Shown here in pieces: positions 34,340 through 64,000 of a stretch of 64,000 nucleotides of DNA. The stretch is from Candidatus Omnitrophota bacterium (GTDB taxonomy: Bacteria; Omnitrophota; Gorgyraeia; Tantalellales; Tantalellaceae), in NCBI GenBank assembly GCA_016783605.1, contig JADHWG010000002.1, positions 107 to 64,106 on the forward strand, written 5' to 3'. Position 1 is the stretch's first letter; every line of letters begins with the position of its first letter. A program made the position numbers and the translations under genes. The notes beneath the pieces were generated by a model. The model had not been told where the DNA came from. It saw nothing but the letters and a program-made list of their open reading frames with translations, and searched no databases.

Positions 34340-34350
34340 CAGTTTTTGGC

Positions 34351-34379
34351 TTGACTAATTGGGCGAGTAATATTAGAAT
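34351..34379 (+). promoter_or_regulatory. Sigma70 promoter (TTGACT-17-TAGAAT) 17 nt upstream of tRNA-Leu
   Basis: Seen: ttgact aattgggcgagtaatat tagaat. Confidence 0.6.
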
Positions 34380-34396
34380 TACTTTCGTTTAAATAA

Positions 34397-34485
34397 GCCG
34401 GAGTGGCGAAACTGGCAGACGCGCTGGATTCAAAATCCAGTGGGACTTAACTCCCGTGTGGGTCCGACTCCCACCTCCGGCACCA
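34397..34485 (+). tRNA. tRNA-Leu (anticodon CAA), type II with long variable arm and encoded CCA
   Basis: Acceptor gccggag pairs with ctccggc. The anticodon stem ctgga/tccag has loop ttCAAaa. The long variable arm is tgggacttaactcccgtg and the T stem is gtggg/cccac. Confidence 0.85.
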
Positions 34486-35986: not shown

Positions 35987-36094
35987 GTGCAATTGAAGAT
36001 ACCACCAACCTCATAGGTTGGTAGTAACCTACGAGGTTGGTGGTGGGTTAAAGGGTGCTTATAGATAGAGGACACGTAAGAAAATGAGGACGAA

Positions 36095-38572: not shown

Positions 38573-38677
38573 GGGCACATTGCATGTGCCCGTAATTGAT
38601 TTTTATGAGTTACGATGCGTTTTTTACCATTCCGATTTCGTTCGGGCACATGCAATGTGCCCCTACGAGGTTGTTAA
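38561..38677. repeat. Compound hairpin with outer P1 arms (aacaacctcgtagg ... cctacgaggttgtt) enclosing two GGGCACATGCAATGTGCCC-type palindromes (38573-38591 and 38644-38663)
   Basis: Seen in sequence immediately after the leuS stop. Confidence 0.85.
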
Positions 38678-38695
38678 AAAGAACAGAGGTGTTAG

Positions 38696-39478: not shown

Positions 39479-39603
39479 ATTGAAAGAAAAGACTATCGGG
39501 GGGAGCAAAATGGAAACTCCCCCTTTGTTTTGCCCTTTCATTTGAAGAATGGTTAAGGATTGATTGACGAAAAATAAAATAGACTTATTCAAGCTTAGGA
39601 AAG

Positions 39604-39987
39604 GTGTCAAAAAGTATGCAAGTGAATAGCTATGAAAAGATAGTGATCATTATCCTGATGATGACGCTACTTGCGGGGTCAATAATTTTGCTGATAAAGG
39701 ACCGTACGCCTTGTAAAGAGATTGTTGTTGTGAAAGGCGCCGTTAAAAAAAGGTTAACGCTCAGCGATGTAGAAAAGCTTCATATGGAAGGGCGGAAAAT
39801 AAATATTAATAAGGCTTCGGCAAGTGAACTTGTTTGCATTCCGTTGGTGGGGAAAGTTCTTGCTTCCAGAATTATAGAACACAGAGATCTCCGAGGCGGC
39901 TTTTACGATAAAAAAGAACTTTTAGGAATAAGCGGTATCGGTGAGAAAAAATTAAAGAAAATCGAAGGATACATAAGCATAAATTAA
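39604..39987 (+). CDS. comEA: ComEA-like helix-hairpin-helix DNA-binding competence protein
   Basis: 127 aa with a TM anchor, then INKASASELVCIPLVGKVLASRIIEHRDLRGGFYDKKELLGISGIGEKKLKKI (tandem HhH). Confidence 0.8.
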   Translation: MSKSMQVNSYEKIVIIILMMTLLAGSIILLIKDRTPCKEIVVVKGAVKKRLTLSDVEKLHMEGRKININKASASELVCIPLVGKVLASRIIEHRDLRGGFYDKKELLGISGIGEKKLKKIEGYISIN

Positions 39988-40030
39988 AGGTTGGAAAACC
40001 GCTGTTCCACCTACGAGGTGGAATAGCTTG

Positions 40031-40140
40031 AAGTTTCATGTTTCATGTTACACGTCGCACGTTTTCCCGCCGGAGGCGGGTTCCTCCTTCGGCGGAAACG
40101 CTGTAACCTGTGACCTGTGACTTGTGACTTGTACCTTGAA
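40031..40140. repeat. Palindromic element family P3, copy 5 (core ccgccggaggcgggttcctccttcggcgg, arms catgtttcatgttaca / ctgtaacctgtgacctgtgacttgtgacttgta)
   Basis: Seen in sequence between comEA and comEC, flanked on both sides by ctgttccacctacgaggtggaat hairpins. Confidence 0.85.
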
Positions 40141-40210
40141 GACCGCTGTTCCACCTACGAGGTGGAATGATGGTTTTGGTGTGGGGTGATTGGGGAAAGT
40201 GGGGGTGGGA

Positions 40211-49600: not shown

Positions 49601-52600
49601 GAGCGGGAAAAGATCATACAGGATCTAAATTTACAAAAGCGAAGGGCAAAATTTTAGTTCGAAACGTGCGTATCACGCCTCGAAGAGAAAAATATGCTCC
49701 GCCCGATTTCTGGCCAAAGGCGCCGAGCGCGCGCAAAAAAGTTTCGGGTGAAATAAAAATCCCTATTACAACAAACTGGCCGGTTAGGGAAGACGCGGGA
49801 AACTGGGCGGTTAAAGCGACGCACGTCAAGGGCGGTATTCTTGCTCTTACCGTGAAACTTCGCGGAGGGGACCCTGAAGGAAACCATAATAAAGGCGAAA
49901 CCTATCTTCCTCTATATGATAAGCGAGGCAAACGTGTCGTTCCTGTCCCGGGATTGCCTGAGGAAGGATATTTTGATGCTCGAGGCAAAGTTATTAAATC
50001 CATGGTTTGGGTTCCAAAAAGCTATGCCGAGGGCAAAAAGATCCCAAGTGCCATACAAACCGGAGCACACGATAAGCATTATAACTACCAGAACAACGCG
50101 TGGAATCCGTCACTTATAACTAAAAACCTCACTGGAAAATGGCATGAATTAAAATTTTATCCTATGGATCCGGCAGAAAACGAACCCGGATACACTGATG
50201 ATGATTTTTTGGTCGTTGCTTTTGGCGAACTTTTATTTAAAACAGGCCTTCCCGGCGCCACTTCACCTGATTACAAATGGGACGGACATATTTACTTTAC
50301 GGATATCCGCATTGAGACTGATGACCGTGTGTTCCCTGAACCCGTGCCGCCATTAATAAAAACGAAAATGTACGCTGAAAATCCAAAAGATAAACCGCCT
50401 GTTCCCATAGAGCTCTTTGAAATGCTTTCCGGCGCCGGCGGTTACGGTATTTTTGACTTTGATCATATTCCGGAGGGGCGAGCCGCGCTGGAGGAAAAAA
50501 TCAAAAAAATGCCTCCAAATGCCCGCGTTTGGCGCCATATGGCGCTTTTCGGAAGTCTTTCGCCGAACGGACCCATTTTGTTCGATGAGAATGATAATTT
50601 TATTGATTTTGGTTTCATTGATCCTGTAACAGGAAAAACGGTGATCATAGGCGTAGAAGGCATGAAAAAATGTGTAGACGAGAGACTTTCTATACTAAAG
50701 CAATATGGCAAAGTAGAGATTACGTCTCTTGTAGCGCATGATGCCGCGGACGGAAAAAAGAAAAAAGAAAACCGTATAGAAGGAGATCGGCCGAATCTTT
50801 TTACGGACTCAAAAAAATTCAAAAGATTTTTACAGGGCATTAAACCCATATTAGAACATATTCGTGACAAATGGAGGGCTCCGGTGCCGGATTCGGCAGG
50901 GCTTGATCTCATACAGCACAATTTTAATAATCCTAAAACTGTTGTCGCTATGTTGGAACTCTTTAACGAGCCGCTCAATATGGATACCGCGCAGGTTCCT
51001 GTGCCGTGTATTCAGAGGAGAATTCACGAATTATTTGAACTCGTCTATGAAATTGATCCTACATGGCTTCTTTCAACCGGAATGAGAGATTACGAGTCCT
51101 GGAAATATTTCGCGCACTTTGTGCTTCCCGAATATTATGACGGCATTAAAAATGTAAAAAATCCATTTTATAAAAATGTTGTACCGCAGTCTCACTGGTA
51201 CGGTGATAAAGAGAGTGTAACACCTCTTGCAACCAACGTGGGAAAATTCTTTATGCCGGAACACGTACTTTTCTGGCTAAAAGGAGAACTTGACCCGCGT
51301 ACGCCTGAAGAATATAAAGCCGCGATAGGCATAGTTGAGGTTATGCGGCAAGTTTATGTTTCAGCCTATGGCGGCGGTCTATTCTGGGTTGACGACGAAT
51401 TTTTGCCGAATTGGAAAGATTACCAGAAATTTTTTAAGGACAACACCGCGCAAGTTCCTTTTACTCCGCCCACCCCCGCTAAACCCGTACAGGTTGTAAT
51501 AACACAGGAAGTGCTCAAAACACTTCCTAACACGATAAAGGCAATCAAAGAGGGGAGTTTAACTTATCGGGACGTGACTATTTTCGCCCAAAGCGAATAC
51601 CCGATCACATTCAAAATGCTGACAGAAAAAGATGTAAATATCAAACTGACAAGAATCGGTCTTAGAACCGACATAATAGAAGCTCTTACGGGACTCGCGG
51701 AGTCGGTAATTCTGAGGGGCTATCCTCTAAATTATGAAACCATCTCCCGCGCGTTTAAAGAAATAATCACGCTCCATGCCGCGAAAGAACTAATGCCGCA
51801 TGCTAAGATGCTTCAGGAGAATGGCATAGCGGTTACGCATAAAAATCTAAGCCGTGTGCTTAAAAAAACATCCCCCTCTCTTATCCCGAAATGCGCTGAA
51901 AAAGCACCCCCCTCTGTCATCCCGGAATTTGCCGAAGGCGAATATCCGGGATCTTGTACCCACAAAAAACTAATCATGTCTTTAGCGGCCATGTTAACCA
52001 TGGCTCCGGTTGTTGCTAGTGCCAATTGGGGAAATATTGTGATGGAATCAGGCATATTTACGACCGTTATGAATTTTTGTTTTTTTGCTGTGCCTATTTT
52101 AGTTTTTTCCGCGGTTATGGTCGGCATATGTTTGACCGCGCAGAAGGTTTTAATTGATCCTTTGGCGAATGTTTTAGATCCCGGCTCTTCCCCCGCATCA
52201 AGTGCGGGGTTCGGCCGGGATGACAAAAAAGAGGAAGGCTCCGACTGGAATAACACATCTGGACACTTCACAAAAAAGGTAAAAATCGCGGGCAGGGCGC
52301 TTCCGGGGGTAGTTGTGGTTTTATTGTTAATCGCTGTCGGCGTAATTTACTGGATGCAAAAAACTACTCCGCCGGAATTTGTTCCTGAAAAACCGGTTTA
52401 TGAAGATGTTATTGATACAAAAGAAGAGAAACTGGAGATAGAGGAGCCGCGTCAGAAGAAATTTTCTAAAAAGCTGAAAGCAAACTCGCCTCGAGATGGA
52501 CCTGAAGACGCTGAAAAGCGTGAAAGGGAAGATACTTTAGAAAAAGAGCGCGCGGAGTTTGATAAAATATTTGGTATGTCTAAAGTGATTACTCATGCTG

Positions 52601-55600
52601 ATGGCTCGTATAAAATTGCGTATTATCCACCGGGTGCGGTTGTTTCTTCTGAAATATATTTTTATTCTGCAGACAAAACGCTCAATAAGATCAGCTATTT
52701 CGATCCCAATACAGGTATTCCTTCTTGCGACGCCTATCTGGACCCCAACGGTACGGAAATTAGCAGAGACTATTTTGATCCGAATATTCAGGATTTAACC
52801 AAAACAGTTTATCTAAGCCCCGACGGGAAAGAAACTTTTATCGTACGCAATCGTTATTCATCGCATTTATCTCAAATGGATCCGAATGGGGGCACAACGG
52901 AATATTATTTTGGCAGGAAGAGTAGTTTTTTCCCGAGTTCATTTGATATCTATGACACTTCAGGAGACAGGGCAACTCTTTTGATGCTTGATACGAATAG
53001 CTGGAGTTTGAAAGAACGAACTGATAGGGGGACGACAGAAGATGGTATTTCATATGAAACTATTACGGATTTACAAACTAATACGACAGCTTATCGCGAA
53101 TACTGGTCCGGGACGCTTATACAAATGTACTGGGAATCTCGGGATAGCGAAGGAAATGTTGGTGGACGGATATTTTACGATAAAAAAGGCATGTCGGTAG
53201 AGACACGAGACGCGAAAGATCGTGTAACGTTGTTAAAAAAAGAGGATCGGATTACCGAGACCAAATATTATCCCGGTAAACATGTGAATCAAATGGAGAG
53301 TGCTCACACAGAATATCTTGTTCCGAGAAACGGGATTTGTTCTGAAGCCATTTGGATGAATAGAGACGGTTCAAAAGATGCTCAGCAGTTTGATTATGAA
53401 GACAAAACATCGATGTGGAGAGAATTTAATAAAGATGATTCGTATGAAGAGACATATTTTGATGAAGAAGGGAAACAGTCAGAAGTTATCTATTATGACT
53501 CAAACAACAATGTTATCCAGCCGGCGGAGGAAGATGAAGAAGGCATAGAAATGGGTAGAGACGTCAGCCACCTAAAGAGAAATGTCACTCATTTAACGAC
53601 TCTCAGCCTAATCGCGTTTGCCGCCAGAGAATTAATCTTACCGGCTGTGTCTGAAGCTTACGGTGGAGGTTTTATAACCCGCGCGGTGATGACTGGTTTT
53701 GAAAATCCGGTTATTTCGGTTTTGATTCTTATGGCTCTTATCGGACTTGAGTTTTTTGTATACAAACTAAGGGTAAAAGCACTTAGTAAAAGAGCAGGAG
53801 ATTTTTACGCGCGCTCACGTGCTCGGACAGAATGGCTGATCGCGGCAGTTTTAACCATTTTTGTTTTTGGAACGGTTTTTCTTGTAAAAAATATTAAGCA
53901 CAAAGAACCGGCGCAAAACGTACAAAAAACTGAAGATATTCAAATTAAAAAGTCGGAAGAAGAAATTTCCGTTGATGTTAACGCGATCATTCGTCGTGTG
54001 AAAAAAAGAAGATACGGAACATATGGAAGACCGGAACCTTCTTCGCTTAAAAACATTCAATTGCCTGAAGCGATGCGGGAATTTGAGGGCTTGAGATTTC
54101 TTTATGAAAGTTCGGATGGCAAAACAGAGTTTTATGAGTCTCCGTATGAAAAGTTTGAGAAAATTAGTTTTCGATATAATCCAAACGATACTCTTATGCA
54201 GATTTCGGGTTTTGACGCGGAAGGAAACGATTATACAATTTATCGATCTTGGCCGAGGGGAAATAGTACTATTTACTCGCACACAGATGATTTGAAAAAA
54301 GATATGATCTTTAACTATGATTCGAATGGGAAATTAACTGATCAGACTAAGTATAATGATGACGGAGAATGTGATTGGAGAGACAATCAGGAAAACGGCA
54401 TATGGTACCACCATACATATGAGTATGGCCCGGACGGTTGGCTTAAAAAAGAAACTAAATTGGATGCTTTCGGGATCACCCCGCTAAAGGAGTGGGAGTA
54501 TGAGCCTGGAACTTATCTTCTGTTGCGGGAGACCAATTCCGATAAATCTTTTATAGAATATGACTACTCATATGACGACCCTGACGATCCGGAGGGATAT
54601 GAATGGAAGCAATTCGGGTGGCATTACGATCCCAATGGAGGGCTTGTTAAGACAGTCGAATATGATAGAGAGGGGAATATTGTTGATATTATCGATCCTG
54701 ACGGTAATCCCGCGCAAATGGTGGTGAACCCGACGGATGGTTCGTATTATTTTTATGCTATGGAGTATGGTGATAGAGCAGAATACCATTATTCTTCAAA
54801 GAATGAGTTTTTTAAAGAAGTAAGATATGATGGATCCCGAATATCGCGAATTATTGAACGCGTGTCTCCTAACGAAAAAAAGGATACACATATTTGGAAA
54901 GATAACACGTATAGCACCTATTATTCGGAAATCAATGAAGACGGGGATTTTATAAAAACCAATCGTGTGGAATATTTTAATTCCGAAGGATGGTCTATAA
55001 AAAAATATAACTACGAAACTAAAGAATGTAGTAAATTTGAATATCCGCCAAACGAAGCATATTTTATTGAGAAGTGCTATAGAGGCGAGAATTTCGAAAC
55101 ATTTATTGAAATTGTTCGTCATCCGTATCCCCAGAGTAAAAAATCAAGCGCTTATGACTCGAGCACAATGAATTTTTTAGCAAAAAAGGTTTTCTCGCCA
55201 ACCGGAGCAGGTTCCGCCGCGGCAGGGGCAATTTTGCTTTTTCCCGCCATCGCGAATGCTATAGGCAAAGTTTCGGGTTCGGCCGGTGTTCTGCCTGTAT
55301 CGACGGTTTTATTGCGTTTTTTAAGCCATCCCTTGAGTGCTGGAATTTTTGGGGCTGTGTTTGGAGTTATTGCATATCTGGCAATTGATTGGACTGCCGA
55401 GAAAATTCAAGAAGCGTCTGCGTCTTCAATAGGTTTTCCGGGAGAGATAAAGCTTACACGGTCAAGTTTTGTTAAGGGAGCTATTGGCGGTGTTCTTTTG
55501 TTTTTATGGTGGTTGTCTAATCCTTTTAGAGCATTTGGTTCAGATAAATCTGATCCATTTTTGAAAATATTTAAGTTGAATTCAGACGAAAAGGAGATAA

Positions 55601-58600
55601 AAGAATTTGATGTACAAAAGTATTCGGGAGCTTTTATTTATAGCGCAATGGTATTTTCTGAAAAAGGAGAGCTGATTGGAAAATTTCCTACTTTTCTCAT
55701 TAATAGAATTTTGGATAAGGAGACACATAATATCGTGGGATATTCATATATAGGGAAAGCAGGTATTTTCAATAAAGCAGGGCGTAAAATTGGAGCCATT
55801 ACACCGGACAGGGATATACAAAATATAGAAGGAAAAATTATCGGAAAAGTTGATGATTATCATAAAGGAGATTTGAAAAATAAAAGGGGAAAGATTGTTG
55901 CCATTCGCAGGGAGAGCGGCTGTGTCATGCTGGATATAAATGGGACGAATTACTTATTAAAACACGAAGATTTCTATTCTGAAAGAAAAGAAATGGTTAG
56001 CAAGTTTTTTAAGAATCTTTCGGTTGACGCGCAAAAAAAGATAATATCCGTTCTTGAATTATCAAAAGGGAGAGAACTTTCTTTGTTTATCAGAGATGTT
56101 GTTCTTACTTTAAGGGAATGGCATCTGCGAGAACATAATCCTATGGGGATAGGTGAACTGAGACAACTTATCAAAGCAGATGAACGGTCCAGTGCGATAT
56201 TAGTAAAATTCGTTTTATCCAATGAACTTTTCAGGGATCTGTTTGATGTAAGTTTTAATGAGCTTGTCAGTCGCGCACAAAAAACTAACAAATCATTCGC
56301 AGAATTTTTGCGAGTAGATGCTGGATTAAAAGATAATGATGTAGTTAAATTTTCGGGGATTTTAGCTTTATTCGGCGGATTAGAAAAGGCTGTTAAAGTT
56401 TATCCAAAATATCTTACGGGTGTAGTGCCTAAACTCTTTGAATCAGTAAAACAGTTAAAGAGAGAAGCATATTTTACAGAAAGGTTATATGAAAAAGTTC
56501 TGGCAGATAAATTTTTACATAAGACGGATTTTGAAAATGCACTTATAAACCTATATAAGTCTTTAGACCCCAAAAGTGTTAAAAGAGATCTGATCGAAAT
56601 AACTTCCAGCCTTTTAGGAGATAACCTTAGCGCGAACACAAAAAAAGAATTAAATTTAAAATCAATCGACACTTCTGCATATAAAAAGGTGCCATTGGAT
56701 AGTGTTGTTCACAATGATACCCTGGTTGTTAAAAACTATTTTTATGACAAAAGATGGTATGACTATTTGCTAAAAGTTTTGCCTGCCTTTGGATATCCTG
56801 AAGGAGGAATAAAAATAGAAAATAACGCGTTTCTTGCAACTCAAAGAATTAACGGAATTATGGTTAAGTTTATAGGAATCTTAAATTCCACAGAAGAAGA
56901 AAAGGGCGACCCGTTTTCTGAGTTAAAAGCTGGTATTCTTGTTCACAGAGGACATCAGGGAAAAGAAACACGAACGACCTTCAACGGCAGAGAAGCGCAA
57001 GTACCGTTACTTTTGCCGTTAGGTTGTCGGAGCGCGGGAGACGCGGATTGGCTTATCGCAGGGAAATATCCTGAAGCCGTAATGTGGGGAACCGGTGGAA
57101 CCGGGGAGGGTCTCAAAAACACGCCGTTTGTATTTCATCTGGTAAAAGCCATATGTAAAAAGGAATATACTACGTGGAAACAAGCTTATTCATATTTGGA
57201 ACAAAGACTTGGTAAAGGTGTTGCGAGAAACTATATGAGACCTGACAGTCTTACATTTATTCTTATCAAGGAGCTTAAAAAACGATACCCCGATGCTGTA
57301 AAAAATTATAATTTCCAGCTCTCAGAAACAACCCCCGCTCGCGCCGGACCTCGTCAATACGGCGATATCTTCGCGCCCAACATTACAAGAAGAGAAATGT
57401 TGCGCGGTAGTTTCCGCCTGCCGATAATCGGCATAATTCTTTCCGGCATTAGAAACAGGGATAAATCGACCGAGGATTCCCCGAGAAAAAACGATGAAAA
57501 AGAAAAAAGGAATGTTGAGAATAAAACGGAGCCTTTCGGGAAGAGACCGTTAAATATCAACCCAACGTTTATTGCACTGTTATTATTCGGTTTGTCAGTC
57601 TGGCTTTTGGGAGCGGAACGAAATCTTAGCAATATTAGTTGGCTGGCTATGGGTGCGCTATGCGGATGTCTTATTCTTTTTTTGGGAAAGCTCTATTCAG
57701 AAAAAGTGACTGCAGGGATAATAGTCTTTTTAAAAAATAACGGAGTATCAGTACCGACCATCTATAAATTGTGGAAGGTATCGAAGAATACACTACCTTT
57801 CGTGATGGCAATTATGTTTGTTATGACAGGCTGGTTTATGTGCAAAAAAATGTCTCCCGAGTATGCCAGTATGCGTATAGTAAGCGCCGTTGCTTTAAGC
57901 ATATTAAGCGGGTGTTTTTTGTTGGAAAAACAAACGGAAGAAGCTATGTTGCGACGAATGGACAAAATAGTAGTGGCAGGTCTCAATTTAATGATAAGAG
58001 TGTTCAGTTTGGTGATAATAGAGGGGTATAATTCAGCGGTGACAATTATTAATTCACTCAATGAAAAAATAATGGAGTTTAGAAATGGTGTTCGTAAAAA
58101 TGATAAATCCGATTTTACGATTACGCTTGGCGTTTCGTCTGAGATCTATAAGAAACTTATCTCGAAAGACGCTATTTCCGAATTGTACAAAAGGGGAATT
58201 AATCGCGTGGTAAGCTTAGACAAATTCGGTGCGAGAGAAGAGATGATGCGTGAGCTTAGTGAGAAAACAAAAGGTGAAAAGGTTATCTGTCTGCTTTTGG
58301 ATGAAACCACGTTCGGGCAGTTGGATCTAAAAGATTCGCAGGGTAATATGAAAATGAAAAAATTTATGAACACGGTTGATCTATTTGTCGAAAGGGCTCA
58401 AAAAGATATTTTTCCCTTGATGCATCCGGAACTTACGCGAATCAATGCCGAAACAGTAAAAAAGATCAATGACGCCGCTAAACTTAGGGGTTTTCTTGAC
58501 ATGCACGCGAGAACTTTGCGGGAAGTGGAATCTCTTGAACTTGTGGACAAAAGTATTTATGACGAACGGTTGGCAGATCTTCAATCCGTGCTTTTTTCGA

Positions 58601-59250
58601 AAGTAAAAATGTCAAATAAAGCGAAACTGTTTGTGGAAAATATAGCTATAGGGAGGTGCAGTAAGAGGGAAACTAAATATATCAGCGTGTCCGCCGCGAC
58701 TGCCGCGGATATGAGGTTTATTGCCGGCGCTTTGGATAAAATGGGGCTTGACAAACAAAAGGCTTCGAAGTTCATACAGGTTCGTGTTTGTAACAAAAAT
58801 GTGACCGGTAAAAATCTGGATAAATATTTGAAAAGGACAGGACTCGGCGCGTATTTGGCGAGAGAAAACGTCAAAGTGGTTTCATCCGCGAATGAACTCG
58901 AACTCGAGAAGACGATGGATGTAGTAAAACAGACGTTTGGCAATGAGATTAATCCGGGACACGTATTTATCGGAGATTCGAGAGACATAGTGCAAGCGGA
59001 TAGAGATTCCTTGAAGCAAAAGAACGCGCCCGTATATGTTCAGATGCGCCGAGAAGGCACCGCGTCACAGCTTCTGCGCGCTATGATAGAACTTGCCGCT
59101 ACGGGGGAGAAGAGAAAGATAAAGATAAAAGGTCTTGGAATTATATTGCGGAAGGACGGATATTATGTCTTTCTGCCGGATATTAAACCGGTAATTAATC
59201 TATTGCGGGAAGAGATCGAAAACTATGAAACAATTTGTTCGATGGTGTAA
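43636..59250 (+). CDS. Giant multi-domain membrane protein, 5204 aa (paralog 2): N-terminal anchor, conserved N-module interrupted by an in-frame palindromic element, lectin/CBM-like beta-sandwich, possible glycosidase-like region, extended YD/MORN-like repeat region, scattered multi-TM segments, conserved C-module
   Basis: Single uninterrupted track ORF. The N-terminus LFQQIAWAQGG, the IYHIQDSHASLGAQYSIVELLDSLATDYNVNLIALEGAEG region and ALVTGGYHTEGLTKIMKEKKLSYLVIAPKF are homologous to the ORF at 1746. The C-terminal about 430 aa (KYISVSAATAADMRFIAGALDKMGLDKQKASKFIQVRV ... VYVQMRREGTASQLL) are homologous to the C-terminus of the ORF at 1746. YD-like repeats (FNYDSNGKLTDQTKYNDDGE, VEYDREGNIVDIIDPDGN) lie at about nt 52560-55140. 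Confidence 0.85.
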   Translation: MGKEKSLYIFTDVRLKKRRIIRVIAFLVASLYLFQQIAWAQGGAPRASSISRPVSGTEGVSRGELPKVPYKFGKTHEFSVNTNETGEIIYHIQDSHASLGAQYSIVELLDSLATDYNVNLIALEGAEGYIDTSVLQSFPDKEIRRDAADRLMKKGLMGAAEFFTVTRDEKEIDLYGIEDEELYRKNVNEFREVVEERSVKIANIDAFLTQLKLLEKEICSERLLRLNRYSFLHRNCELSFSNYRKELLEFTDRFKIDEGSGNFSPNPHPEQGEGSLVNFSKGSIEILQPFGLQDEESGNSPTPQIDTGKYSELAKLTEAISLEKSIDFQKANTERRALIDKLSELLDKAALKELVIKSVDFQQNMISPSEFHEYLVGMSKSRKIPPETYPNLNMFARYISVYEKVNLFYLTKECEFLEKEIREKLYRNEDERKLVEITQMTRMLRRLYSMELTPGDHSFIKTERARRSAEEFTLFIKEACKKYGVIFEEGYDIPEMFAGIEPAMTFYETAEKRNQHILKNTVTRMKKSGARAAALVTGGYHTEGLTKIMKEKKLSYLVIAPKFESGEERPYIAVLTGKKKPYQKLLKTGKYQLAMEPFFYRSNMEEMKEDLFYALGRVVLKGEDLKKVKDALYNNHKIEYEKRISQKEKETKFDVITPTELKAFLDNIHVIRSGTSAVIGDKTDKNSIIVLARKNSVYNFKTATPSQKRKLLNRISEGKMPEEMEGIGTNITDFVHDRSQILTKLDKSTPAIVQKILANLTEGKIDENEIKEQAVILLKRKGMPSDWQSDIGLKKRVNRVIALVRQGFAAKKTEKEKKKFGEWKKAIDVEKYWENLKNVLGEVPEEVLVNGIDFEFANFVDHMWSFIQQIIDSEKFKREIIQCYNQKNADADKNYQDIIQRLKSLRSQIFSNQTFNILGDDVSPEIRKHWNYILSEYVGCRWFSDITEKHAEIFEDTLHEKITSQNKSEIEKYTKHFRKNLPFKSKKKVPLRIFMKYLYIKILEATKYWENEVDVYIESKEETCNNGVKYFINNIDMKNLEKDRVKKGEKDICVVLKEMMDILLVGNLYSDFANPTKEKKREKYPVDDSAETLDHFFKLREQTRRGKDTELHVLHDNVGLELVSIFHLIDFCIKNEIVKKVVLHTKNYPYAISDVVGEKDIRMQINALQNASELSDIAFEKTGNIKYMEQLSDDITGHLKNQNIVIAKPHWFPTLGQNFLDIPEDYYNELKKADLILAMGDGWYSKLFLTRNWKYTADAKEILSYMPAPTVIFRIGKNPIIAGLTAKMAEYLKKIGKWWKPPRFGMIHFARGGKYARKKAYNEYETHEEAIDEQLEIAYAEGRFKAVSDEIVAPVAEFFKTSGYEKISKKLTKDPNTATRQIAINEVTGIEDFRGHASWRGIHISAELDDEEKQKVLVHEVGAYYRLTHGLNLDLEALYLDYLKKKEIDKKTAREKFKKLKEMKELPEGFSPERDYSGEPLRVIEGNAKKATFFHIIGRKIKRIVFRVIGRKEKTCSLYVIEGKAKMERDPGYFPSENSGMTSVELSRNSRMTKERTSQNSGQRAVIPVEEPGSIFRNYKKLFKLLSIFTFILGLIIVPAIKLTHFMTPSKNAPPFEYRIKESVKPVTDFLVKGLSAHGPTDIIKIEPQGTFSIEHGVEITAYNALYDVPSNAFVSDYYLMFVFKEGVSPGTRLQIFLKNREWKNLYAYPGSPTGGKVIFRPGIDPCNVCQFKPEETPYGDISAIGVKVWDGSSGNALSNLKKVYVVKNGIKPEDVLREKKTPLSQEKKESQKTPVPQFVKTPQEKLPAPPVAIPQEKSKKQKSSDPDAIVVPLDIPGTWYGQKWPDSQAISNVRYDPKRKALVGDFNIIQGHPNLDRGEVIVDVLDLGISPFNFDKWELTADVKVDVKEGSFGHTPNNADGVGFFVKTGPAQGWKNAYEWENHPENEVGDWKTISFSRGEFNKIDRVDPQDGFPLKDPIIRMFGIKLGAGKDHTGSKFTKAKGKILVRNVRITPRREKYAPPDFWPKAPSARKKVSGEIKIPITTNWPVREDAGNWAVKATHVKGGILALTVKLRGGDPEGNHNKGETYLPLYDKRGKRVVPVPGLPEEGYFDARGKVIKSMVWVPKSYAEGKKIPSAIQTGAHDKHYNYQNNAWNPSLITKNLTGKWHELKFYPMDPAENEPGYTDDDFLVVAFGELLFKTGLPGATSPDYKWDGHIYFTDIRIETDDRVFPEPVPPLIKTKMYAENPKDKPPVPIELFEMLSGAGGYGIFDFDHIPEGRAALEEKIKKMPPNARVWRHMALFGSLSPNGPILFDENDNFIDFGFIDPVTGKTVIIGVEGMKKCVDERLSILKQYGKVEITSLVAHDAADGKKKKENRIEGDRPNLFTDSKKFKRFLQGIKPILEHIRDKWRAPVPDSAGLDLIQHNFNNPKTVVAMLELFNEPLNMDTAQVPVPCIQRRIHELFELVYEIDPTWLLSTGMRDYESWKYFAHFVLPEYYDGIKNVKNPFYKNVVPQSHWYGDKESVTPLATNVGKFFMPEHVLFWLKGELDPRTPEEYKAAIGIVEVMRQVYVSAYGGGLFWVDDEFLPNWKDYQKFFKDNTAQVPFTPPTPAKPVQVVITQEVLKTLPNTIKAIKEGSLTYRDVTIFAQSEYPITFKMLTEKDVNIKLTRIGLRTDIIEALTGLAESVILRGYPLNYETISRAFKEIITLHAAKELMPHAKMLQENGIAVTHKNLSRVLKKTSPSLIPKCAEKAPPSVIPEFAEGEYPGSCTHKKLIMSLAAMLTMAPVVASANWGNIVMESGIFTTVMNFCFFAVPILVFSAVMVGICLTAQKVLIDPLANVLDPGSSPASSAGFGRDDKKEEGSDWNNTSGHFTKKVKIAGRALPGVVVVLLLIAVGVIYWMQKTTPPEFVPEKPVYEDVIDTKEEKLEIEEPRQKKFSKKLKANSPRDGPEDAEKREREDTLEKERAEFDKIFGMSKVITHADGSYKIAYYPPGAVVSSEIYFYSADKTLNKISYFDPNTGIPSCDAYLDPNGTEISRDYFDPNIQDLTKTVYLSPDGKETFIVRNRYSSHLSQMDPNGGTTEYYFGRKSSFFPSSFDIYDTSGDRATLLMLDTNSWSLKERTDRGTTEDGISYETITDLQTNTTAYREYWSGTLIQMYWESRDSEGNVGGRIFYDKKGMSVETRDAKDRVTLLKKEDRITETKYYPGKHVNQMESAHTEYLVPRNGICSEAIWMNRDGSKDAQQFDYEDKTSMWREFNKDDSYEETYFDEEGKQSEVIYYDSNNNVIQPAEEDEEGIEMGRDVSHLKRNVTHLTTLSLIAFAARELILPAVSEAYGGGFITRAVMTGFENPVISVLILMALIGLEFFVYKLRVKALSKRAGDFYARSRARTEWLIAAVLTIFVFGTVFLVKNIKHKEPAQNVQKTEDIQIKKSEEEISVDVNAIIRRVKKRRYGTYGRPEPSSLKNIQLPEAMREFEGLRFLYESSDGKTEFYESPYEKFEKISFRYNPNDTLMQISGFDAEGNDYTIYRSWPRGNSTIYSHTDDLKKDMIFNYDSNGKLTDQTKYNDDGECDWRDNQENGIWYHHTYEYGPDGWLKKETKLDAFGITPLKEWEYEPGTYLLLRETNSDKSFIEYDYSYDDPDDPEGYEWKQFGWHYDPNGGLVKTVEYDREGNIVDIIDPDGNPAQMVVNPTDGSYYFYAMEYGDRAEYHYSSKNEFFKEVRYDGSRISRIIERVSPNEKKDTHIWKDNTYSTYYSEINEDGDFIKTNRVEYFNSEGWSIKKYNYETKECSKFEYPPNEAYFIEKCYRGENFETFIEIVRHPYPQSKKSSAYDSSTMNFLAKKVFSPTGAGSAAAGAILLFPAIANAIGKVSGSAGVLPVSTVLLRFLSHPLSAGIFGAVFGVIAYLAIDWTAEKIQEASASSIGFPGEIKLTRSSFVKGAIGGVLLFLWWLSNPFRAFGSDKSDPFLKIFKLNSDEKEIKEFDVQKYSGAFIYSAMVFSEKGELIGKFPTFLINRILDKETHNIVGYSYIGKAGIFNKAGRKIGAITPDRDIQNIEGKIIGKVDDYHKGDLKNKRGKIVAIRRESGCVMLDINGTNYLLKHEDFYSERKEMVSKFFKNLSVDAQKKIISVLELSKGRELSLFIRDVVLTLREWHLREHNPMGIGELRQLIKADERSSAILVKFVLSNELFRDLFDVSFNELVSRAQKTNKSFAEFLRVDAGLKDNDVVKFSGILALFGGLEKAVKVYPKYLTGVVPKLFESVKQLKREAYFTERLYEKVLADKFLHKTDFENALINLYKSLDPKSVKRDLIEITSSLLGDNLSANTKKELNLKSIDTSAYKKVPLDSVVHNDTLVVKNYFYDKRWYDYLLKVLPAFGYPEGGIKIENNAFLATQRINGIMVKFIGILNSTEEEKGDPFSELKAGILVHRGHQGKETRTTFNGREAQVPLLLPLGCRSAGDADWLIAGKYPEAVMWGTGGTGEGLKNTPFVFHLVKAICKKEYTTWKQAYSYLEQRLGKGVARNYMRPDSLTFILIKELKKRYPDAVKNYNFQLSETTPARAGPRQYGDIFAPNITRREMLRGSFRLPIIGIILSGIRNRDKSTEDSPRKNDEKEKRNVENKTEPFGKRPLNINPTFIALLLFGLSVWLLGAERNLSNISWLAMGALCGCLILFLGKLYSEKVTAGIIVFLKNNGVSVPTIYKLWKVSKNTLPFVMAIMFVMTGWFMCKKMSPEYASMRIVSAVALSILSGCFLLEKQTEEAMLRRMDKIVVAGLNLMIRVFSLVIIEGYNSAVTIINSLNEKIMEFRNGVRKNDKSDFTITLGVSSEIYKKLISKDAISELYKRGINRVVSLDKFGAREEMMRELSEKTKGEKVICLLLDETTFGQLDLKDSQGNMKMKKFMNTVDLFVERAQKDIFPLMHPELTRINAETVKKINDAAKLRGFLDMHARTLREVESLELVDKSIYDERLADLQSVLFSKVKMSNKAKLFVENIAIGRCSKRETKYISVSAATAADMRFIAGALDKMGLDKQKASKFIQVRVCNKNVTGKNLDKYLKRTGLGAYLARENVKVVSSANELELEKTMDVVKQTFGNEINPGHVFIGDSRDIVQADRDSLKQKNAPVYVQMRREGTASQLLRAMIELAATGEKRKIKIKGLGIILRKDGYYVFLPDIKPVINLLREEIENYETICSMV
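44407..44545 (+). repeat. Complete P4-family palindromic element (139 nt) inserted in frame within giant gene 2
   Basis: Seen: gaggggtcggggaatttttctccgaaccctcatcctgagcaaggcgaaggatctct ... agagatccttcagccctttggacttcaggatgaggagtcgggaaactccccgacccctc. The arms match the intergenic half-copies at 27547 and 28447. It is translated as EGSGNFSPNPHPEQGEGSLVNFSKGSIEILQPFGLQDEESGNSPTPQ and coincides with an indel of about 46 aa relative to paralog 1. Confidence 0.8.
48233..48357 (+). repeat. Imperfect palindromic segment inside giant gene 2 that resembles the intergenic P2 family (gatcccgg...ccgggatgacaag ... ctgtcatcccgg...ccgggatc)
   Basis: Seen in sequence. Related short segments occur at 51893-51960 (tgtcatcccggaatttgccgaaggcgaatatccgggatc) and at 52190-52230. 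Confidence 0.5.
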
Positions 59251-59471
59251 TAGGTTGGATAGAACTCTGGTCTTTTGAGGTGGGAATTAGCAGGGGTAAA
59301 TATAGTCGACAAACAAAGAATTTGCTTTTAGCGCCAATATATGATATATTTTTTGCGAACCATAACAAAAGGTTCGCAAAGGAAAGATGATATAACCCGT
59401 TGCGATATGGGGAGTTATCCAAATAAAGCATCAAAGCATGGTTCGAAAAATGGCGTTTAAATGGAGAGAAT

Positions 59472-60506
59472 ATGAATATTATGGAATTGAGGAAAGAGAT
59501 CGAAAAAATTAGAAAAAATAGGGCAGATTTCATTAATGTTTCAAATTTGGAATGGTATTCCCTTTTTAAAGATGAAATTCGAAATTCTATAGCAATAGAG
59601 GGAGTTTTCGCGAATAGAAACGATCTTTTAGATGTTCTGGAAAGGAACAAAAGAACTGATAGTGAAAAAACCGCTTCAATTTTAGGTTATTTTGAATCTG
59701 CAAGTTCAATGTATGAGTATGCGCACAATCAACATAAAGAAAAAGAGTTTGTTTTAAAAGTGTCGGATGTAAAACAAATCCATACACTTCTCATGAGGTA
59801 TGAAAAAGACATGGGGATATATCTTGGTGATCTGGGAGAATACAGAAAAACCAACGTGGAAGTTGCAAGCGCTACTTTTAAGCCTATAGACGTTTATTAT
59901 GTGGCCACAGCAATGAATCTTCTCGTAAAGTGGGTAAATTCTAAAATTGCCGACAAAGAATTTGATCCGGTGACCTTAGTAACCATTTCACATATCTGGT
60001 TTGAAACCGTTCACCCTTTTAGGGACGGGAACGGAAGAGTAGGGCGAATATTGTTGTCGTATCTTTTAGTTGGCGCGGGCTTTGTAAATATCGCAATTAA
60101 AGGTGTAGCAAAAAGTGATAGGGAGATATATTATAATGCTCTTGAAGCATGTGACGATTGTTTTGAGCGTATGCATCGAGATTTAGAGAAAAAAAAGAAA
60201 ATCGTTACAAAAGACGTTGACAGATACATGAAAGATGTTGATTTCGATCCGCTATCAAAAATCATTGTTAAACGTTTGGAAGACAGTGTAAAGCGGTTAC
60301 GGACTATATCGAAAGATAAGTTGAAAGGTGATGCTGTTCTTTCTTTGCGTGAGTTAGCGGAAACATACAACTATTCGCAGAACTATTTGAGGAATTTGAT
60401 AAATAGAGGGCAACTAAAGGCACACAAAGAGGGTAAGTTATGGTATGTACGAGTCCGGGATATGCAAAAATACATGGAATCAATTGCAAAAAAATCAACC
60501 TTGTAG
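59472..60506 (+). CDS. fic: Fic-family protein (Fido domain AMPylase/Doc-like) with C-terminal HTH
   Basis: 344 aa. It has the canonical Fic motif HPFRDGNGRVGR and a C-terminal excisionase/MerR-like HTH (LRELAETYNYSQNYLRNLINRGQLKAHKEGKLWYV). Confidence 0.85.
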   Translation: MNIMELRKEIEKIRKNRADFINVSNLEWYSLFKDEIRNSIAIEGVFANRNDLLDVLERNKRTDSEKTASILGYFESASSMYEYAHNQHKEKEFVLKVSDVKQIHTLLMRYEKDMGIYLGDLGEYRKTNVEVASATFKPIDVYYVATAMNLLVKWVNSKIADKEFDPVTLVTISHIWFETVHPFRDGNGRVGRILLSYLLVGAGFVNIAIKGVAKSDREIYYNALEACDDCFERMHRDLEKKKKIVTKDVDRYMKDVDFDPLSKIIVKRLEDSVKRLRTISKDKLKGDAVLSLRELAETYNYSQNYLRNLINRGQLKAHKEGKLWYVRVRDMQKYMESIAKKSTL

Positions 60507-60557
60507 GTGGAATGACACTTGGTGGAATCTGCGGGTTCCAAGAAGATTCTAAGGTTT

Positions 60558-60983
60558 TTACTGCTTCTTAAGGTATTTTACAACATATTTTTGGAAATCG
60601 CGGAAATCCTTAAGGTTATTAAGATGTTCGTAAATGAGCTGAGGATCAACTTTAAGATATTCGTGGGCAAGGATGTTACGCAAACCTGCCATAGGTTCAA
60701 TCTTTTTGGCGAAATTTTTTGGAATTATTTTATTGGAGGAAATAATTTGTAGTGCATCTTTATTATCCCTGGGTCTGGACCAGTCGTTATCCACAATTAT
60801 ATGGTGACAAATATCCAGAATGCATTGAATGGCAACCTCAAGACATCGTTCGGCAAGTTTGAATATTTTGGGGTCAGAGCAAAATTTCTTCTGAGAAACA
60901 GCTTTTAATTCATCAAGAAGGAGAATGTTTTCACGCATTTCGCTTAATCTTTCATTAACGGTTTCCGGATTTACCATAATCAA
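60558..60983 (-). CDS. hepT: HepT (DUF86) RNase toxin
   Basis: 141 aa. It has the R-x4-HxY motif as RNILAHEY and overlaps the upstream MNT gene by 4 nt. Confidence 0.8.
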   Translation of the reverse strand: MIMVNPETVNERLSEMRENILLLDELKAVSQKKFCSDPKIFKLAERCLEVAIQCILDICHHIIVDNDWSRPRDNKDALQIISSNKIIPKNFAKKIEPMAGLRNILAHEYLKVDPQLIYEHLNNLKDFRDFQKYVVKYLKKQ

Positions 60984-61387
60984 ACTCCTTGTAAAATTTT
61001 TTTATGCAGAGCTTCGTCGTATAGTTTGCGAATAGGTGCTTCGTCTATGTACCTTTTTATGGTGGAAACCTCAAAGCGTATTCTGTCCATTTCGTTTTTA
61101 CAGTATAGAAGAAAGTTATGTGCCGTGATTTCATATTTAAGTAACAGAGGCGCGTAATGCAGGCTTACTATGTCAACCTTGGATGGAAAGAATTTACTTA
61201 AATCCGAGGAAAGACGCGCAATTTCTTTAAGCGCAAGCGGGTCGCAGGGTTCTTTTTTGAACAAAACGGCAATATCAAAATCACTTTGTTCAGAAGCGTT
61301 GCCTTTAACCCGTGAGCCGAAGAGGTAGGCAAGTTTTACTTTATGTTTGTGAAACACATTTTTATCTATTTTTGGTGAAAAATTCAT
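60980..61387 (-). CDS. mnt: MNT-family nucleotidyltransferase antitoxin
   Basis: 135 aa. YLFGSRVKGNASEQSDFDIAVLF is the GS-x-DxD nucleotidyltransferase motif. Confidence 0.8.
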   Translation of the reverse strand: MNFSPKIDKNVFHKHKVKLAYLFGSRVKGNASEQSDFDIAVLFKKEPCDPLALKEIARLSSDLSKFFPSKVDIVSLHYAPLLLKYEITAHNFLLYCKNEMDRIRFEVSTIKRYIDEAPIRKLYDEALHKKILQGV

Positions 61388-61410
61388 AAAATTACCTCAC
61401 CCGAATAATA

Positions 61411-61554
61411 TCATAAACATAGACGAATATCAAAGTTTTCTGTAATATGCAGGAAATTCTCATCGTATTGGAATATATACCCGCCATCAGTTTCTTCCAA
61501 AATTCCTGCCAGTTCATTTTTATAATAAACTTTTGCTTTCCTGTGGTCATTCAT
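61411..61554 (-). pseudogene. 47-aa remnant matching the N-terminal subdomain of HipA-family kinases (HipS-like). The kinase core is absent.
   Basis: Read manually from the minus strand: MNDHRKAKVYYKNELAGILEETDGGYIFQYDENFLHITENFDIRLCL. The V-Y-x-N-x-L-x-G-x-L-x4-G-x-Y-x-F-x-Y-D pattern is the HipA N-terminal domain signature. It lies 30 nt downstream of the HipB-like HTH gene. Confidence 0.4.
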
Positions 61555-61583
61555 GAAAATTTTTCCTGAAATTTTTATGTTAT

Positions 61584-61793
61584 TTACATTTTGCCGCGAT
61601 TCTTTTTTTCTATTGACAGATAGTATCCTAAAAATTCTAAAACTTTGTTCACTTTGTCCACTCGCACAGTAGTTTTGCCTTGTTCAAGTTCTCGAAGGAA
61701 TCTTAATCCAACACCGGATCTCTTGGCAAATTCAACTTGGGTTAATTTTGTTTTCTTACGCAATTGTTTAATTTGTTTGTTTAAATTTTTCAT
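61584..61793 (-). CDS. XRE-family helix-turn-helix regulator (HipB-like antitoxin)
   Basis: 69 aa. KLTQVEFAKRSGVGLRFLRELEQGKTTVRVDKVNKVLEFLG is an HTH_XRE domain. Confidence 0.75.
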   Translation of the reverse strand: MKNLNKQIKQLRKKTKLTQVEFAKRSGVGLRFLRELEQGKTTVRVDKVNKVLEFLGYYLSIEKKNRGKM

Positions 61794-62203
61794 AATATTT
61801 CCATAATGCTATACAAAAGTATACCACTCAGCGGGTATAAATTCAACATATGTCTTGATATTTTATACCCTTGAAGGTGCAAAATGGAATAATATGCCCC
61901 CTTAAGGGTATAAGAACGCAAAGAAACATCGAAGTTATACCTCATCGGGTGTAAAAAACTCCCCTCACTTCCACCTCGTAGGTGGAGGTGAGGGGAAGCG
62001 AAATTGGGGATTTTGTGAAAACAAAAAACAACCGCGAATGAGCTTATCCATAGAGATAAAAGCCAAGGTGTTAAGATATAAAATAGCTTATTTTAATGGT
62101 TTTAATGGTATCGTTTTTATGATAGAATAAATACGATTAAAGCGATGTAACTTTTTTGTAATATAACGATAAGGTGGGAGAATAAAGATTAAAGGAGTGT
62201 GAA

Positions 62204-64000
62204 ATGACACTGTTCTCGAAAATTAAAATTAGTGTGTTAGCGTTAGTTTTGTTTTCTGTTTGCACCGTAGTGCGCGCGGATGATGGTGATATTTTTGTTG
62301 AATATCCAAGCGAAAACTTGATGCGAAAAATTCAGACTAATGGTTTTATCTATGAGTATTTCGACGAAGCCGAATATAGCAACGAATGGAGTACATGGGG
62401 CAGATCCATTTTAGCATACGAAGAAATTGACGGCGAGTGGCAATATAAGACGTGGGATTGGGAAACATTTGCTGGAGACGGACAGGTTTTCTTAACGGAG
62501 TACGTCGGAGATTATGTGTTAGAAGCCAATACAAGCGCGGCTTTAAGCGGGGTATCAACGTCCGAAAGAAGAATCAGTTACTTATACGACCACAAAGATA
62601 ATTGGGGAGTGGATACCGCAGACAACGGCTGGATCGAAAGAGAAAAAACTATTTATGATACCGACGGTGAAAAGGTTCTTGAAAAATATTTGCGAAATGC
62701 TAACGACCTTTTGGTGAAGGATATCCACACGGATACGAATGTCTATTACGTTTATGAGTATCATGATGTCGCCGGCATGGAAGAAGTTATTCACTACAAA
62801 AAGAAGTATGTTTATGACGAAGCGGATGAGGCGGATATTTTATCCGGAAACGCGGGAATTTTTGTGGATTCACTTGAGTATATCGACACTGATTATACGG
62901 TAAGGTGGGGAGCGAACGGGAAGATAACCACACTGCATGTTGATGGAGATAATTCTTACAATAACACTTATTTGGATCCGTCTGACGGAATATTTCACAT
63001 ATACAATTGGAATGATTCGTGGGAACTTATTAGTGTACGTAAAGAGCATCCGGACGGGACGGTTGAAATCTGTATTCCTGATGATCCGGAAGATACGGTT
63101 TGGCCGCTTCTTAAAAAACGTGTGCCTTCGGATGGTTTTATTAAGGGAGTTAACCTTCCGTGGATCCATTATGGATACGATATGGGGATGCGAACGGAAA
63201 CAGGGGATTATGACGGATATTCGAAAAATCTTAATGAGTTATACGGGAAAATGGATAAACATAAAGGAGATTGTGTAAGACTGTTTTTGTTCGCGGATCT
63301 TAGAGTCGGTGTGGATTTTGACGCGAGTGGTAATCCCGTAAAATTTACGGACAGAGTATATGAAGACATGAACGCGCTTTTAGATTGCGCCAGCGCTTTA
63401 GGGATAAAGCTTATTCCTGTTTTGTTTGACTATATGATAGCTGATGGAGTATCAGGTCCGGGATTTGGAGAACATCCGGATGTAATAACCGATCCCGCGA
63501 AAAGAGGTCTTCTTGTCAACTTATTCAAAGAGTTTATTCAGGAATTCGGAGATCATGAGTCAATTTACGCGTGGGACATAATGAATGAACCGGAATGTTC
63601 GAATATCAACATAGCGGATCTTCAGAATTTTGTGACGGCGTTTACGACAATGATACACACGGAAACTTCAAAAGCGAAAGTTACAGTTGGGAGTTTAGAC
63701 AAAGAAAGCATGCAGGATCATTGGATTGATGTTGGACTCGACATTTATCAGTTTCACTATTACGACAAAATGGGGAGCCCTGAAGAATATTTAACTTCGA
63801 TCCAAGATCTTGGTAAGCCCGTGATCGCGGGTGAAATCGGCGCGACAAACGTCGCGGACAAACTAAGTGTTTTAAGGCAAAACGGATACGATGGAGGACT
63901 TTTTTGGCAAGATGAACAAGCTGGAGATGAGTTTACAATAAGCGAAGAGGAATACGAAGTGATAGATAACTGGTTCTATGGAACAACGTACACGTATTAT
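62204..64000 (+). CDS. Secreted protein with N-terminal YD-like repeats and a C-terminal clan GH-A (GH5-like) glycoside hydrolase domain; partial, runs off the window
   Basis: The frame was read manually and has no stop for 599 codons. A GGAG RBS precedes the ATG. The signal peptide is MTLFSKIKISVLALVLFSVCTVVRA. The acid/base motif WDIMNEPE is at about 63570-63593 and the nucleophile motif VIAGEIG at about 63820-63840, typical of a (beta/alpha)8 GH5/GH26-type barrel. Confidence 0.8.
   Translation, partial: MTLFSKIKISVLALVLFSVCTVVRADDGDIFVEYPSENLMRKIQTNGFIYEYFDEAEYSNEWSTWGRSILAYEEIDGEWQYKTWDWETFAGDGQVFLTEYVGDYVLEANTSAALSGVSTSERRISYLYDHKDNWGVDTADNGWIEREKTIYDTDGEKVLEKYLRNANDLLVKDIHTDTNVYYVYEYHDVAGMEEVIHYKKKYVYDEADEADILSGNAGIFVDSLEYIDTDYTVRWGANGKITTLHVDGDNSYNNTYLDPSDGIFHIYNWNDSWELISVRKEHPDGTVEICIPDDPEDTVWPLLKKRVPSDGFIKGVNLPWIHYGYDMGMRTETGDYDGYSKNLNELYGKMDKHKGDCVRLFLFADLRVGVDFDASGNPVKFTDRVYEDMNALLDCASALGIKLIPVLFDYMIADGVSGPGFGEHPDVITDPAKRGLLVNLFKEFIQEFGDHESIYAWDIMNEPECSNINIADLQNFVTAFTTMIHTETSKAKVTVGSLDKESMQDHWIDVGLDIYQFHYYDKMGSPEEYLTSIQDLGKPVIAGEIGATNVADKLSVLRQNGYDGGLFWQDEQAGDEFTISEEEYEVIDNWFYGTTYTYY

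Follow-up and report, generated by a model that had tools for sequence, protein, structure and literature searches.

In the tripartite HipBST toxin–antitoxin systems, the toxicity of HipT, which lies in the phosphorylation of TrpS, is neutralised by HipS. These systems, represented by Escherichia coli O127:H6, Legionella pneumophila (Lpg2368-2370) and Haemophilus influenzae (HI_0665-0666), place hipB before hipS; HipS is their antitoxin and HipT their kinase toxin, and HipB augments HipS besides acting as an autoregulator (Vang Nielsen et al. 2019, PMC6581861; Gerdes et al. 2021, PMC8262856). HipBA of E. coli K-12 differs in that its kinase is a single protein of ~440 amino acids (aa), with N-subdomain 1 fused to the kinase core, and its HipB is the antitoxin; HipT has the HipA_C core without N-subdomain 1. 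The type VII system MntA/HepT (Shewanella oneidensis SO_3165/SO_3166) is defined by the motifs GSX10DXD and RX4HXY, and its antitoxin MntA oligo-AMPylates the tyrosine of the HepT motif (PMC7641770). For the Fic AMP-transferases, classes and a conserved inhibitory glutamate have been described (PMC3667792); class II members such as SoFic of S. oneidensis and human FICD hold the active-site and the inhibitory motif in the same polypeptide. Here we analyse an islet of such genes at positions 59472-61793 of a 64-kb stretch of DNA from Candidatus Omnitrophota (contig JADHWG010000002.1; hereafter the window), in which a truncated hipS stands between an intact hipB and an intact mntA-hepT pair. The names carried by identical proteins in public databases likewise assign the sequence to Candidatus Omnitrophota.

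All five open reading frames (ORFs) that a sequence-only reading had named in this islet are present with matching coordinates, and profile matches agree with their identification as Fic, HepT, MNT, a helix–turn–helix (HTH) protein of the HipB type and a 47-aa ORF of the HipA N-terminal type. The Fic gene on the plus strand is, as that reading had it, convergent with a minus-strand operon in the order HTH, 47-aa ORF, MNT and HepT, whose members are separated by gaps of 29, 23 and 2 nucleotides (nt; Table 1). We consider it highly probable that this minus-strand operon is a wrecked tripartite hipB-hipS-hipT operon that has lost the whole of hipT, together with two thirds of hipS at its 3′ end, to an intact mntA-hepT cassette. 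The earlier proposal that a Hip module had decayed beside MNT/HepT is thus borne out by the truncated hipS and by the absence of hipT from the window.

The 47-aa reading frame and the HipBST operons of relatives

The 47-aa ORF matches the Pfam model PF13657 (Couple_hipA) at 24.4 bits (cut-off 22.5; E 4.2e-5), its residues 8-43 covering profile positions 2-37 of 99; this match above threshold to a HipA N-domain profile had been set as a test beforehand. Its score of 20.6 bits with TIGR03071 lies under the cut-off of 27.8, as expected because the ORF is a one-third fragment. The closest solved structure is HipS of E. coli O127 (residues 4-34). Over the aligned stretch the ORF is 51-60% identical to the N-termini of HipS proteins of 107-114 aa from four relatives; the alignment covers residues 1-34, and the sequences diverge beyond. 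An exhaustive HMMER search of 1.84 billion representatives with the ORF gave 38 hits which, beyond the ORF itself, are all 36-149 aa long, save one spurious 4298-aa entry without an aligned stretch, and no full-length HipA (~440 aa) is among the 38. A word-index protein search with the same query returned only the ORF itself.

The retained part of the gene amounts to 34 of ~110 hipS codons. Codons 39-47 (nine codons) and the stop are read from promoter DNA of the mntA-hepT cassette, and up to four codons cross the junction between the two. The ORF is therefore a chimera, because its first 34 codons are hipS-derived and its final codons and stop are cassette-derived. A complete HipS has ~100 aa and the full Couple_hipA domain, with the part that touches the Gly-rich loop of the kinase. 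Missing from the ORF is the PEGW segment found in HipS of the relatives and of E. coli; in E. coli, HipS cannot act as an antitoxin without a tryptophan of this region (PMC10627512). Furthermore, the hipS fragment is 62-68% identical to the relatives at the amino acid level, while these are 76-85% identical among themselves, and this greater divergence is consistent with relaxed constraint. Judged from its sequence, the 47-aa ORF is best classed as a pseudogene of hipS, truncated and chimeric, and not as a stand-alone partner.

The relatives' contigs, labelled L005, L034 and so on, identify the parental operon. The context of six independent HipB homologues, 77-87% identical to the window HipB, was examined (L005, L008/9/10, L011, L012, L034/35). 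Each of these hipB genes is followed by a gene for a 107-115 aa protein that matches only Couple_hipA, and the third gene encodes a protein of 277-300 aa for which HipA_C is the sole match above threshold; a HipT kinase gene is present in L005, L008, L011, L012 and L034. Against solved structures, the kinase matches HipT of Legionella (8.7e-44) and of E. coli O127 (4e-20), while HipA reaches 1e-5 to 7e-4. Similarly, the small protein matches H. influenzae HI_0666 (5e-19), E. coli HipS (2e-15) and Legionella HipS (2e-11), with HipA at 4e-4. The HipA structure matches are at least 10 orders of magnitude weaker than the HipS and HipT matches. Since their proteins match solved HipS and HipT and not HipA, these operons are HipBST. 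The relatives' HipT is shorter than E. coli HipT, whose solved chains have 340-341 residues.

The window shares with HipBST the order of hipB before hipS, a HipB of the Y4mF HTH type and a small protein homologous to N-subdomain 1 of HipA; it differs in lacking hipT and most of hipS, and holds a remnant instead of a HipBST system in working order. No trace of the lost part was found in the 64-kb window, where tblastn with four HipT proteins gave nothing better than E ~0.2 and a tblastn search for hipT or 3′ remnants of hipS with proteins of four relatives gave hits at chance level only. A cluster of weak tblastn hits at 59264-59694 was considered as a Hip remnant and rejected, since the hits do not follow a colinear order and no Pfam model matches the 151-aa ORF at this place.

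The regulator scores 73.1 bits with TIGR03070 (Y4mF/couple_hipB; cut-off 71.65) and is 83-90% identical to HipB of the intact hipBST operons, which are 87-97% identical among themselves; by these values hipB is intact and conserved to the same degree as in complete systems. Its promoter-like site (TTGAAT, 17-nt spacer, TATACT) lies at 61846-61818, and four TATACC-N6-GGTATA palindromes stand upstream of hipB at 61822-61839, 61864-61881, 61895-61912 and 61936-61953. No further match to this pattern occurs in the 64 kb, a statistic that is descriptive only, as the pattern was derived from these same sites. The palindromes are also kept upstream of hipB in five relatives. By analogy with the autoregulation of hipBA and hipBST (PMC8262856), they are probably HipB operators. 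HipBA of E. coli K-12 is alike in its homologous HTH regulator, four operator-like palindromes upstream of hipB and homologous N-subdomain-1 sequence, but in the lineage studied here this domain is a separate gene.

The MntA/HepT cassette, its junctions and the orthologous locus

The two genes that follow the hipS fragment form a type VII pair. HepT scores 105 bits with NF047751 and MntA 94 bits with NF047752, where both NCBIfam equivalog cut-offs are 60. MntA carries the GSX10DXD motif as GSRVKGNASEQSDFD (residues 24-38) and HepT the RX4HXY motif as RNILAHEY (residues 100-107). The HepT ORF spans 60558-60983 on the minus strand, and gene callers choose the ATG at 60977, which gives 139 aa. 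As in S. oneidensis, the HEPN gene directly follows the MNT gene, both motifs are present and the scores exceed the equivalog cut-offs; the difference is that the pair in the window sits within the wreck of another toxin–antitoxin operon and is probably, to judge from the sequence, transcribed by hipB-promoter read-through as well.

Relatives of this cassette exist free of Hip genes. MntA of the window is 71-73% identical to MntA of the two unrelated contigs L028 and L027, and L028 carries an intact mntA-hepT pair (MntA 71% identical). No Hip genes were found near mntA in L027 or L028, which answers the question raised beforehand of whether relatives with the same MNT/HepT pair also hold a Hip kinase. 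The cassette's promoter-like site is the best promoter-like match in the region and is conserved upstream of mntA in both relatives, including 19 of 19 identical bases (AAAACTTTGATATTCGTCT). In L027, the 73%-identical mntA (4001-4478) is followed by only ~20 codons of hepT and then by an opposite-strand gene for an AAA_14/DUF4143-type ATPase. This is a second, independent case in this cassette family of a truncated toxin beside an intact antitoxin.

The right junction is confined to a few nucleotides by homology from both sides. Homology to hipBST relatives extends across the hipB control region and hipB into hipS, where that to three relatives ends at 61454 (codon 34), and cassette homology begins at 61439 (L027) or 61446 (L028). 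Window positions 61439-61388 correspond by homology to the DNA that precedes mntA in L027 and L028. A first MAFFT alignment had extended the hipS homology to ~61420 with a 4-nt insertion; this was rejected, since those bases proved to belong to the promoter region that is conserved upstream of mntA in L027 and L028. On the other side, the L028 homology stops at the hepT stop codon, and the 51-nt spacer 60507-60557 has no homology above shuffled controls to the 3′ flanks of hipT or hepT.

L034, a 7.2-kb contig of a closely related genome, preserves the orthologous locus with the neighbours and orientation of the window. The C-terminal part of its copy of the giant gene that adjoins the islet is 79% identical at the nucleotide level, and beside it Fic is convergent with an intact hipB-hipS-hipT operon, with no MNT/HepT. 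The comparison with related genomes that the sequence-only reading had proposed thus yielded an intact hipT at this locus, without MNT/HepT there. Window 60491-61462, which contains the mntA-hepT cassette, has no counterpart in L034, and homology resumes at ~60490. Conversely, nothing in the window corresponds to L034 621-2183, where the 3′ part of hipS, hipT and small ORFs of the DUF4160-like and DUF2442 types lie. By this sequence comparison, ~1.1-1.5 kb of HipBST DNA is replaced by ~0.9 kb of MntA/HepT DNA.

An incoming type VII mntA-hepT cassette with its own promoter would have taken the place of hipT as a whole and of the last two thirds of hipS. It would have left the HipBST control region with its promoter and four operator-like palindromes, an intact hipB and the 34 hipS codons. 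The reading frame of these codons would continue across the junction and end at a stop that occurs by chance in the cassette's promoter DNA, thereby giving the 47-aa ORF. Lacking the segment with which HipS is inserted into the kinase, and with no kinase left to neutralise, the fragment would have no antitoxin function. By analogy with the described pair, mntA-hepT would function as a module on its own: MntA would oligo-AMPylate the RX4HXY tyrosine of HepT and so silence the RNase. The pair would be transcribed from its own promoter and probably by hipB-promoter read-through as well, because no terminator-like site was found between hipB and mntA. HipB would probably still repress its own promoter. 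The convergent Fic gene would stand apart from these systems and encode a class II AMP-transferase that inhibits itself. For HipS, HipB and MntA/HepT, the mechanisms given here follow published work (PMC6581861, PMC8262856, PMC10627512, PMC7641770).

Table 1. Positions of the islet's genes, control sites, junction and repeats in the 64-kb window
Feature	Coordinates	Strand	Basis
Fic AMP-transferase, predicted class II (self-inhibited), C-terminal HTH_17, 344 aa	59472..60506	+	profile matches, motifs
REP-like palindrome copy (TCAACCTTGTAGGTGGA, one mismatch), overlaps Fic stop codon	60495..60511	.	pattern search
hepT, HEPN RNase toxin of type VII toxin–antitoxin pair, 139 aa	60558..60977	-	NF047751, RX4HXY
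mntA, nucleotidyltransferase antitoxin, 135 aa	60980..61387	-	NF047752, GSX10DXD
mntA-hepT promoter-like site: TTGATA, 17-nt spacer, TATTAT, extended TG	61405..61433	-	10/12 positions
hipS′, truncated chimeric 47-aa ORF	61411..61554	-	PF13657, alignment to relatives' HipS
Probable recombination junction, hipS-derived DNA / mntA-hepT cassette DNA, 14 nt	61440..61453	.	homology end points
hipB, intact Y4mF-family HTH regulator, 69 aa	61584..61793	-	TIGR03070
hipB control region: promoter-like site and four operator-like palindromes	61818..61953	-	motif matches, conservation
REP-like hairpin, 17-bp arms, bounds hipB control region	61960..61996	-	inverted-repeat search, RNA fold
REP-like sites	13305-13343, 14619-14705, 23237-23253, 35975-35991, 40006-40022, 40150-40166, 60495-60511, 61970-61986		

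Competing explanations for the islet

Several observations weigh against a simple replacement of this kind. The extra divergence of the hipS fragment rests on only 34 codons, and the 47-aa ORF retains its ATG start codon and a Shine-Dalgarno-like AGGA, such that a peptide may still be made from it. The left junction is placed only within ~65 nt (60491-60557), where the spacer matches neither parent. The hipB-hipS stretch is only 71% identical to L034 at the nucleotide level, against 79-85% for the flanking genes, and the hipBST alleles of the window and L034 may for this reason not be strictly orthologous. As to the order of events, either a single replacement or an insertion followed by a deletion would fit.

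The sequence-only reading had offered two accounts of the 47-aa ORF. One made it the N-terminal stump of a bipartite hipA, left when an MNT/HepT insertion split hipBA. The ORF does match the 'HipA N-terminal domain' models of Pfam and TIGRFAM, and the domain is homologous in HipA and HipS (PMC8262856). Yet this account fails on the close relatives, all six of which have separate hipS and hipT genes in the order hipB-hipS-hipT encoding proteins far closer to solved HipS and HipT than to HipA; with hipBST at the L034 locus too, and with every informative hit among the 1.84 billion proteins 36-149 aa long and none a ~440-aa HipA, we regard a hipA stump as highly improbable. The other account, a HipS-like stand-alone partner whose kinase has been lost, holds as far as the loss of the kinase goes, whereas the ORF itself is a fragment of hipS with a cassette-derived tail. 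A stronger form of it, in which the 47-aa protein is a functional short HipS-like partner, for example a decoy or an anti-addiction antitoxin against incoming HipT kinases, would agree with the kept ATG and AGGA in an apparently transcribed operon and with the identity of the ORF across the sampled population. It is nonetheless very unlikely, given that the ORF covers only profile positions 2-37 of 99, lacks the PEGW region with the essential tryptophan (PMC10627512), ends in 9-13 residues of translated promoter DNA and is more diverged in its hipS part than the intact relatives; moreover, similar hits below ~100 aa may be genes cut off at contig ends.

A hybrid type VII operon under HipB control, in which hipB and its operators were kept intact because they were co-opted to regulate mntA-hepT, is a further reading. 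The intact hipB with all four operator-like palindromes, the gaps of only 29 and 23 nt without a terminator-like site from hipB to mntA, and a HipB conservation equal to that in intact systems all speak for it. The cassette, however, brings its own conserved promoter and does not need that of hipB, and an intact hipB may merely reflect a recent event; on balance we think such a hybrid unlikely. Improbable in a slightly higher degree is the more specific proposal that hipB, the four operators and the hipS′ leader were recruited to form a new control region of the captured mntA-hepT pair or, more modestly, that the orphan HipB serves as an anti-addiction repressor against incoming HipBST. If true, a type II-style HTH repressor (HipB) would govern a type VII toxin–antitoxin system. 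Finally, the juxtaposition might be an assembly chimera or a chance ORF, as the sequence is metagenome-derived and short REP-like repeats can mislead assemblers. However, the exact 76-nt junction sequence is identical across six independently assembled contigs from different samples and two assembly pipelines, which argues against an assembly artefact; the whole islet is 99.7-100% identical among these contigs, and the profile and pairwise matches are significant (E 1e-11). This last possibility has next to no probability, and the replacement of most of hipS and all of hipT by an mntA-hepT cassette remains the explanation that we prefer.

Surroundings of the islet and cassette turnover

The Fic protein matches PF02661 (1.6e-16) and, at its C terminus, HTH_17 (7.7e-10), and its closest solved relatives are FICD and SoFic. 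The inhibitory motif, which Engel et al. are said to have given in full as (S/T)xxxE(G/N) in 2012, is represented near its N terminus by SIAIEG (residues 39-44). The active-site motif HPFRDGNGRVGR (residues 181-192) is of the type HxFx(D/E)GNGRxxR (PMC3667792). The PADLOC SoFic model matches at 2.7e-32, while the NCBIfam SoFic equivalog NF046030 gives 48.8 bits, far under its cut-off of 550. No partner antitoxin gene was found by Fic: ORFs in 59251-59471 are only 39-51 aa long, and the overlapping 151-aa ORF on the minus strand has no Pfam match. From these features Fic is predicted to be a class II self-inhibited AMP-transferase like SoFic and FICD and neither a class I Fic toxin with a separate antitoxin nor the toxin of a two-gene toxin–antitoxin system. 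It differs from those class II proteins in scoring under the SoFic equivalog cut-off and in its C-terminal HTH_17 domain of the excisionase type. The earlier count of four toxin–antitoxin-type genes needs a correction for Fic, which falls outside strict toxin–antitoxin toxins because of its own inhibitory motif and the lack of a partner antitoxin gene.

The Fic orthologue in L034 is 86% identical at the amino acid level and 85% at the nucleotide level. On the strength of this identity, Fic can be regarded as a stable resident while the neighbouring toxin–antitoxin content turned over. The 221-nt gap between the stop of the giant gene and the start of Fic contains a 24-nt imperfect inverted repeat (59338-59394, GCGAACC...GGTTCGC core), which is no canonical terminator, since no T-run adjoins it; the stretch is kept in L034, where homology spans 59315-60490. 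Between hipT and Fic of L034, the gene caller passed over two small overlapping ORFs (1729-1947 and 1880-2086). One has a weak DUF4160 match (18.1 bits, under the cut-off), while the DUF2442 match of the other passes its cut-off (30.7 bits) but is confined to profile positions 3-53 of 72. The two have the look of a further small gene pair in partial decay at this site.

Fic also neighbours HipBST elsewhere in the phylum. In L008 (positions 188-6989; Omnitrophota metagenome-assembled genome GCA_021108075.1), a DUF4172+Fic gene has an intact hipBST immediately downstream of it, and beyond hipBST come an rve transposase gene, an AbiEi/AbiEii pair and a phage-type integrase. This region is clearly a mobile island of defence and toxin–antitoxin genes and a second case of Fic beside HipBST.

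The window contains a family of REP-like palindromes with the core TTCCACCT-NNN-AGGTGGAA, often flanked by CCGCTG/CAG. The pattern TCCACCTNNNAGGTGGA occurs at 11 sites, against 0.11 expected, singly or in clusters of two or three, and all inspected sites are intergenic. REP-like copies stand upstream of hipB in L034 and L035 too. Of the copies in the islet region, the one at the Fic stop codon marks the left-hand limit of the DNA in which the window and L034 differ, and the hairpin that bounds the hipB control region has a predicted RNA fold of -31.7 kcal/mol (z-score -4.86) with UUUUUU next on the minus strand. These two copies form a 15/17 direct repeat (60495-60511 and 61970-61986), which was considered as a target-site duplication around the minus-strand operon; this was rejected, as the repeat belongs to the genome-wide REP-like family. 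An Rfam scan of 58500-62600 gave no match.

Variability extends beyond the islet. In two more distant Omnitrophota contigs, L019 (5958-10001) and L015 (220-2112), homologues of window genes 36095-42640 are followed directly by the homologue of the GH5 gene, such that the homologues of the 816-aa gene (40190-42640) and of the GH5 gene adjoin, without the 5204-aa giant gene (43636-59250) and without the islet. These were the only informative contigs, most GH5 relatives at ~50% identity being too distant for synteny. The whole interval 42.6-62.2 kb, giant gene included, is variable, because both the giant gene and the islet are absent from L019 and L015. Precomputed Pfam hits of the giant gene include an ARMT1-like domain. 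The view of the islet as an integration hotspot is supported insofar as the content of the locus varies among relatives, but the markers of integration are missing: no integrase was found in the islet, no tRNA nearby and no target-site duplication. The sole tRNAs in the window, divergent tRNA-Ala(GGC) and tRNA-Leu(CAA) at 34167-34485, lie ~25 kb from the islet.

The event at this locus is ordinary toxin–antitoxin cassette turnover among known families, with no new system or mechanism. It is an unusually well resolved case of cassette-for-cassette turnover in an uncultivated phylum, the Omnitrophota. Its junction is narrowed down to 14 nt, other metagenomes contain both types of parental sequence, and an orthologous locus still carries an intact operon of the ancestral type. 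For annotation, a 'HipA N-terminal domain' match on a tiny ORF beside a Y4mF-type HTH gene should be read as the HipS of a HipBST system, here as its pseudogene, and HipBST is common beside Y4mF-type regulators in Omnitrophota.

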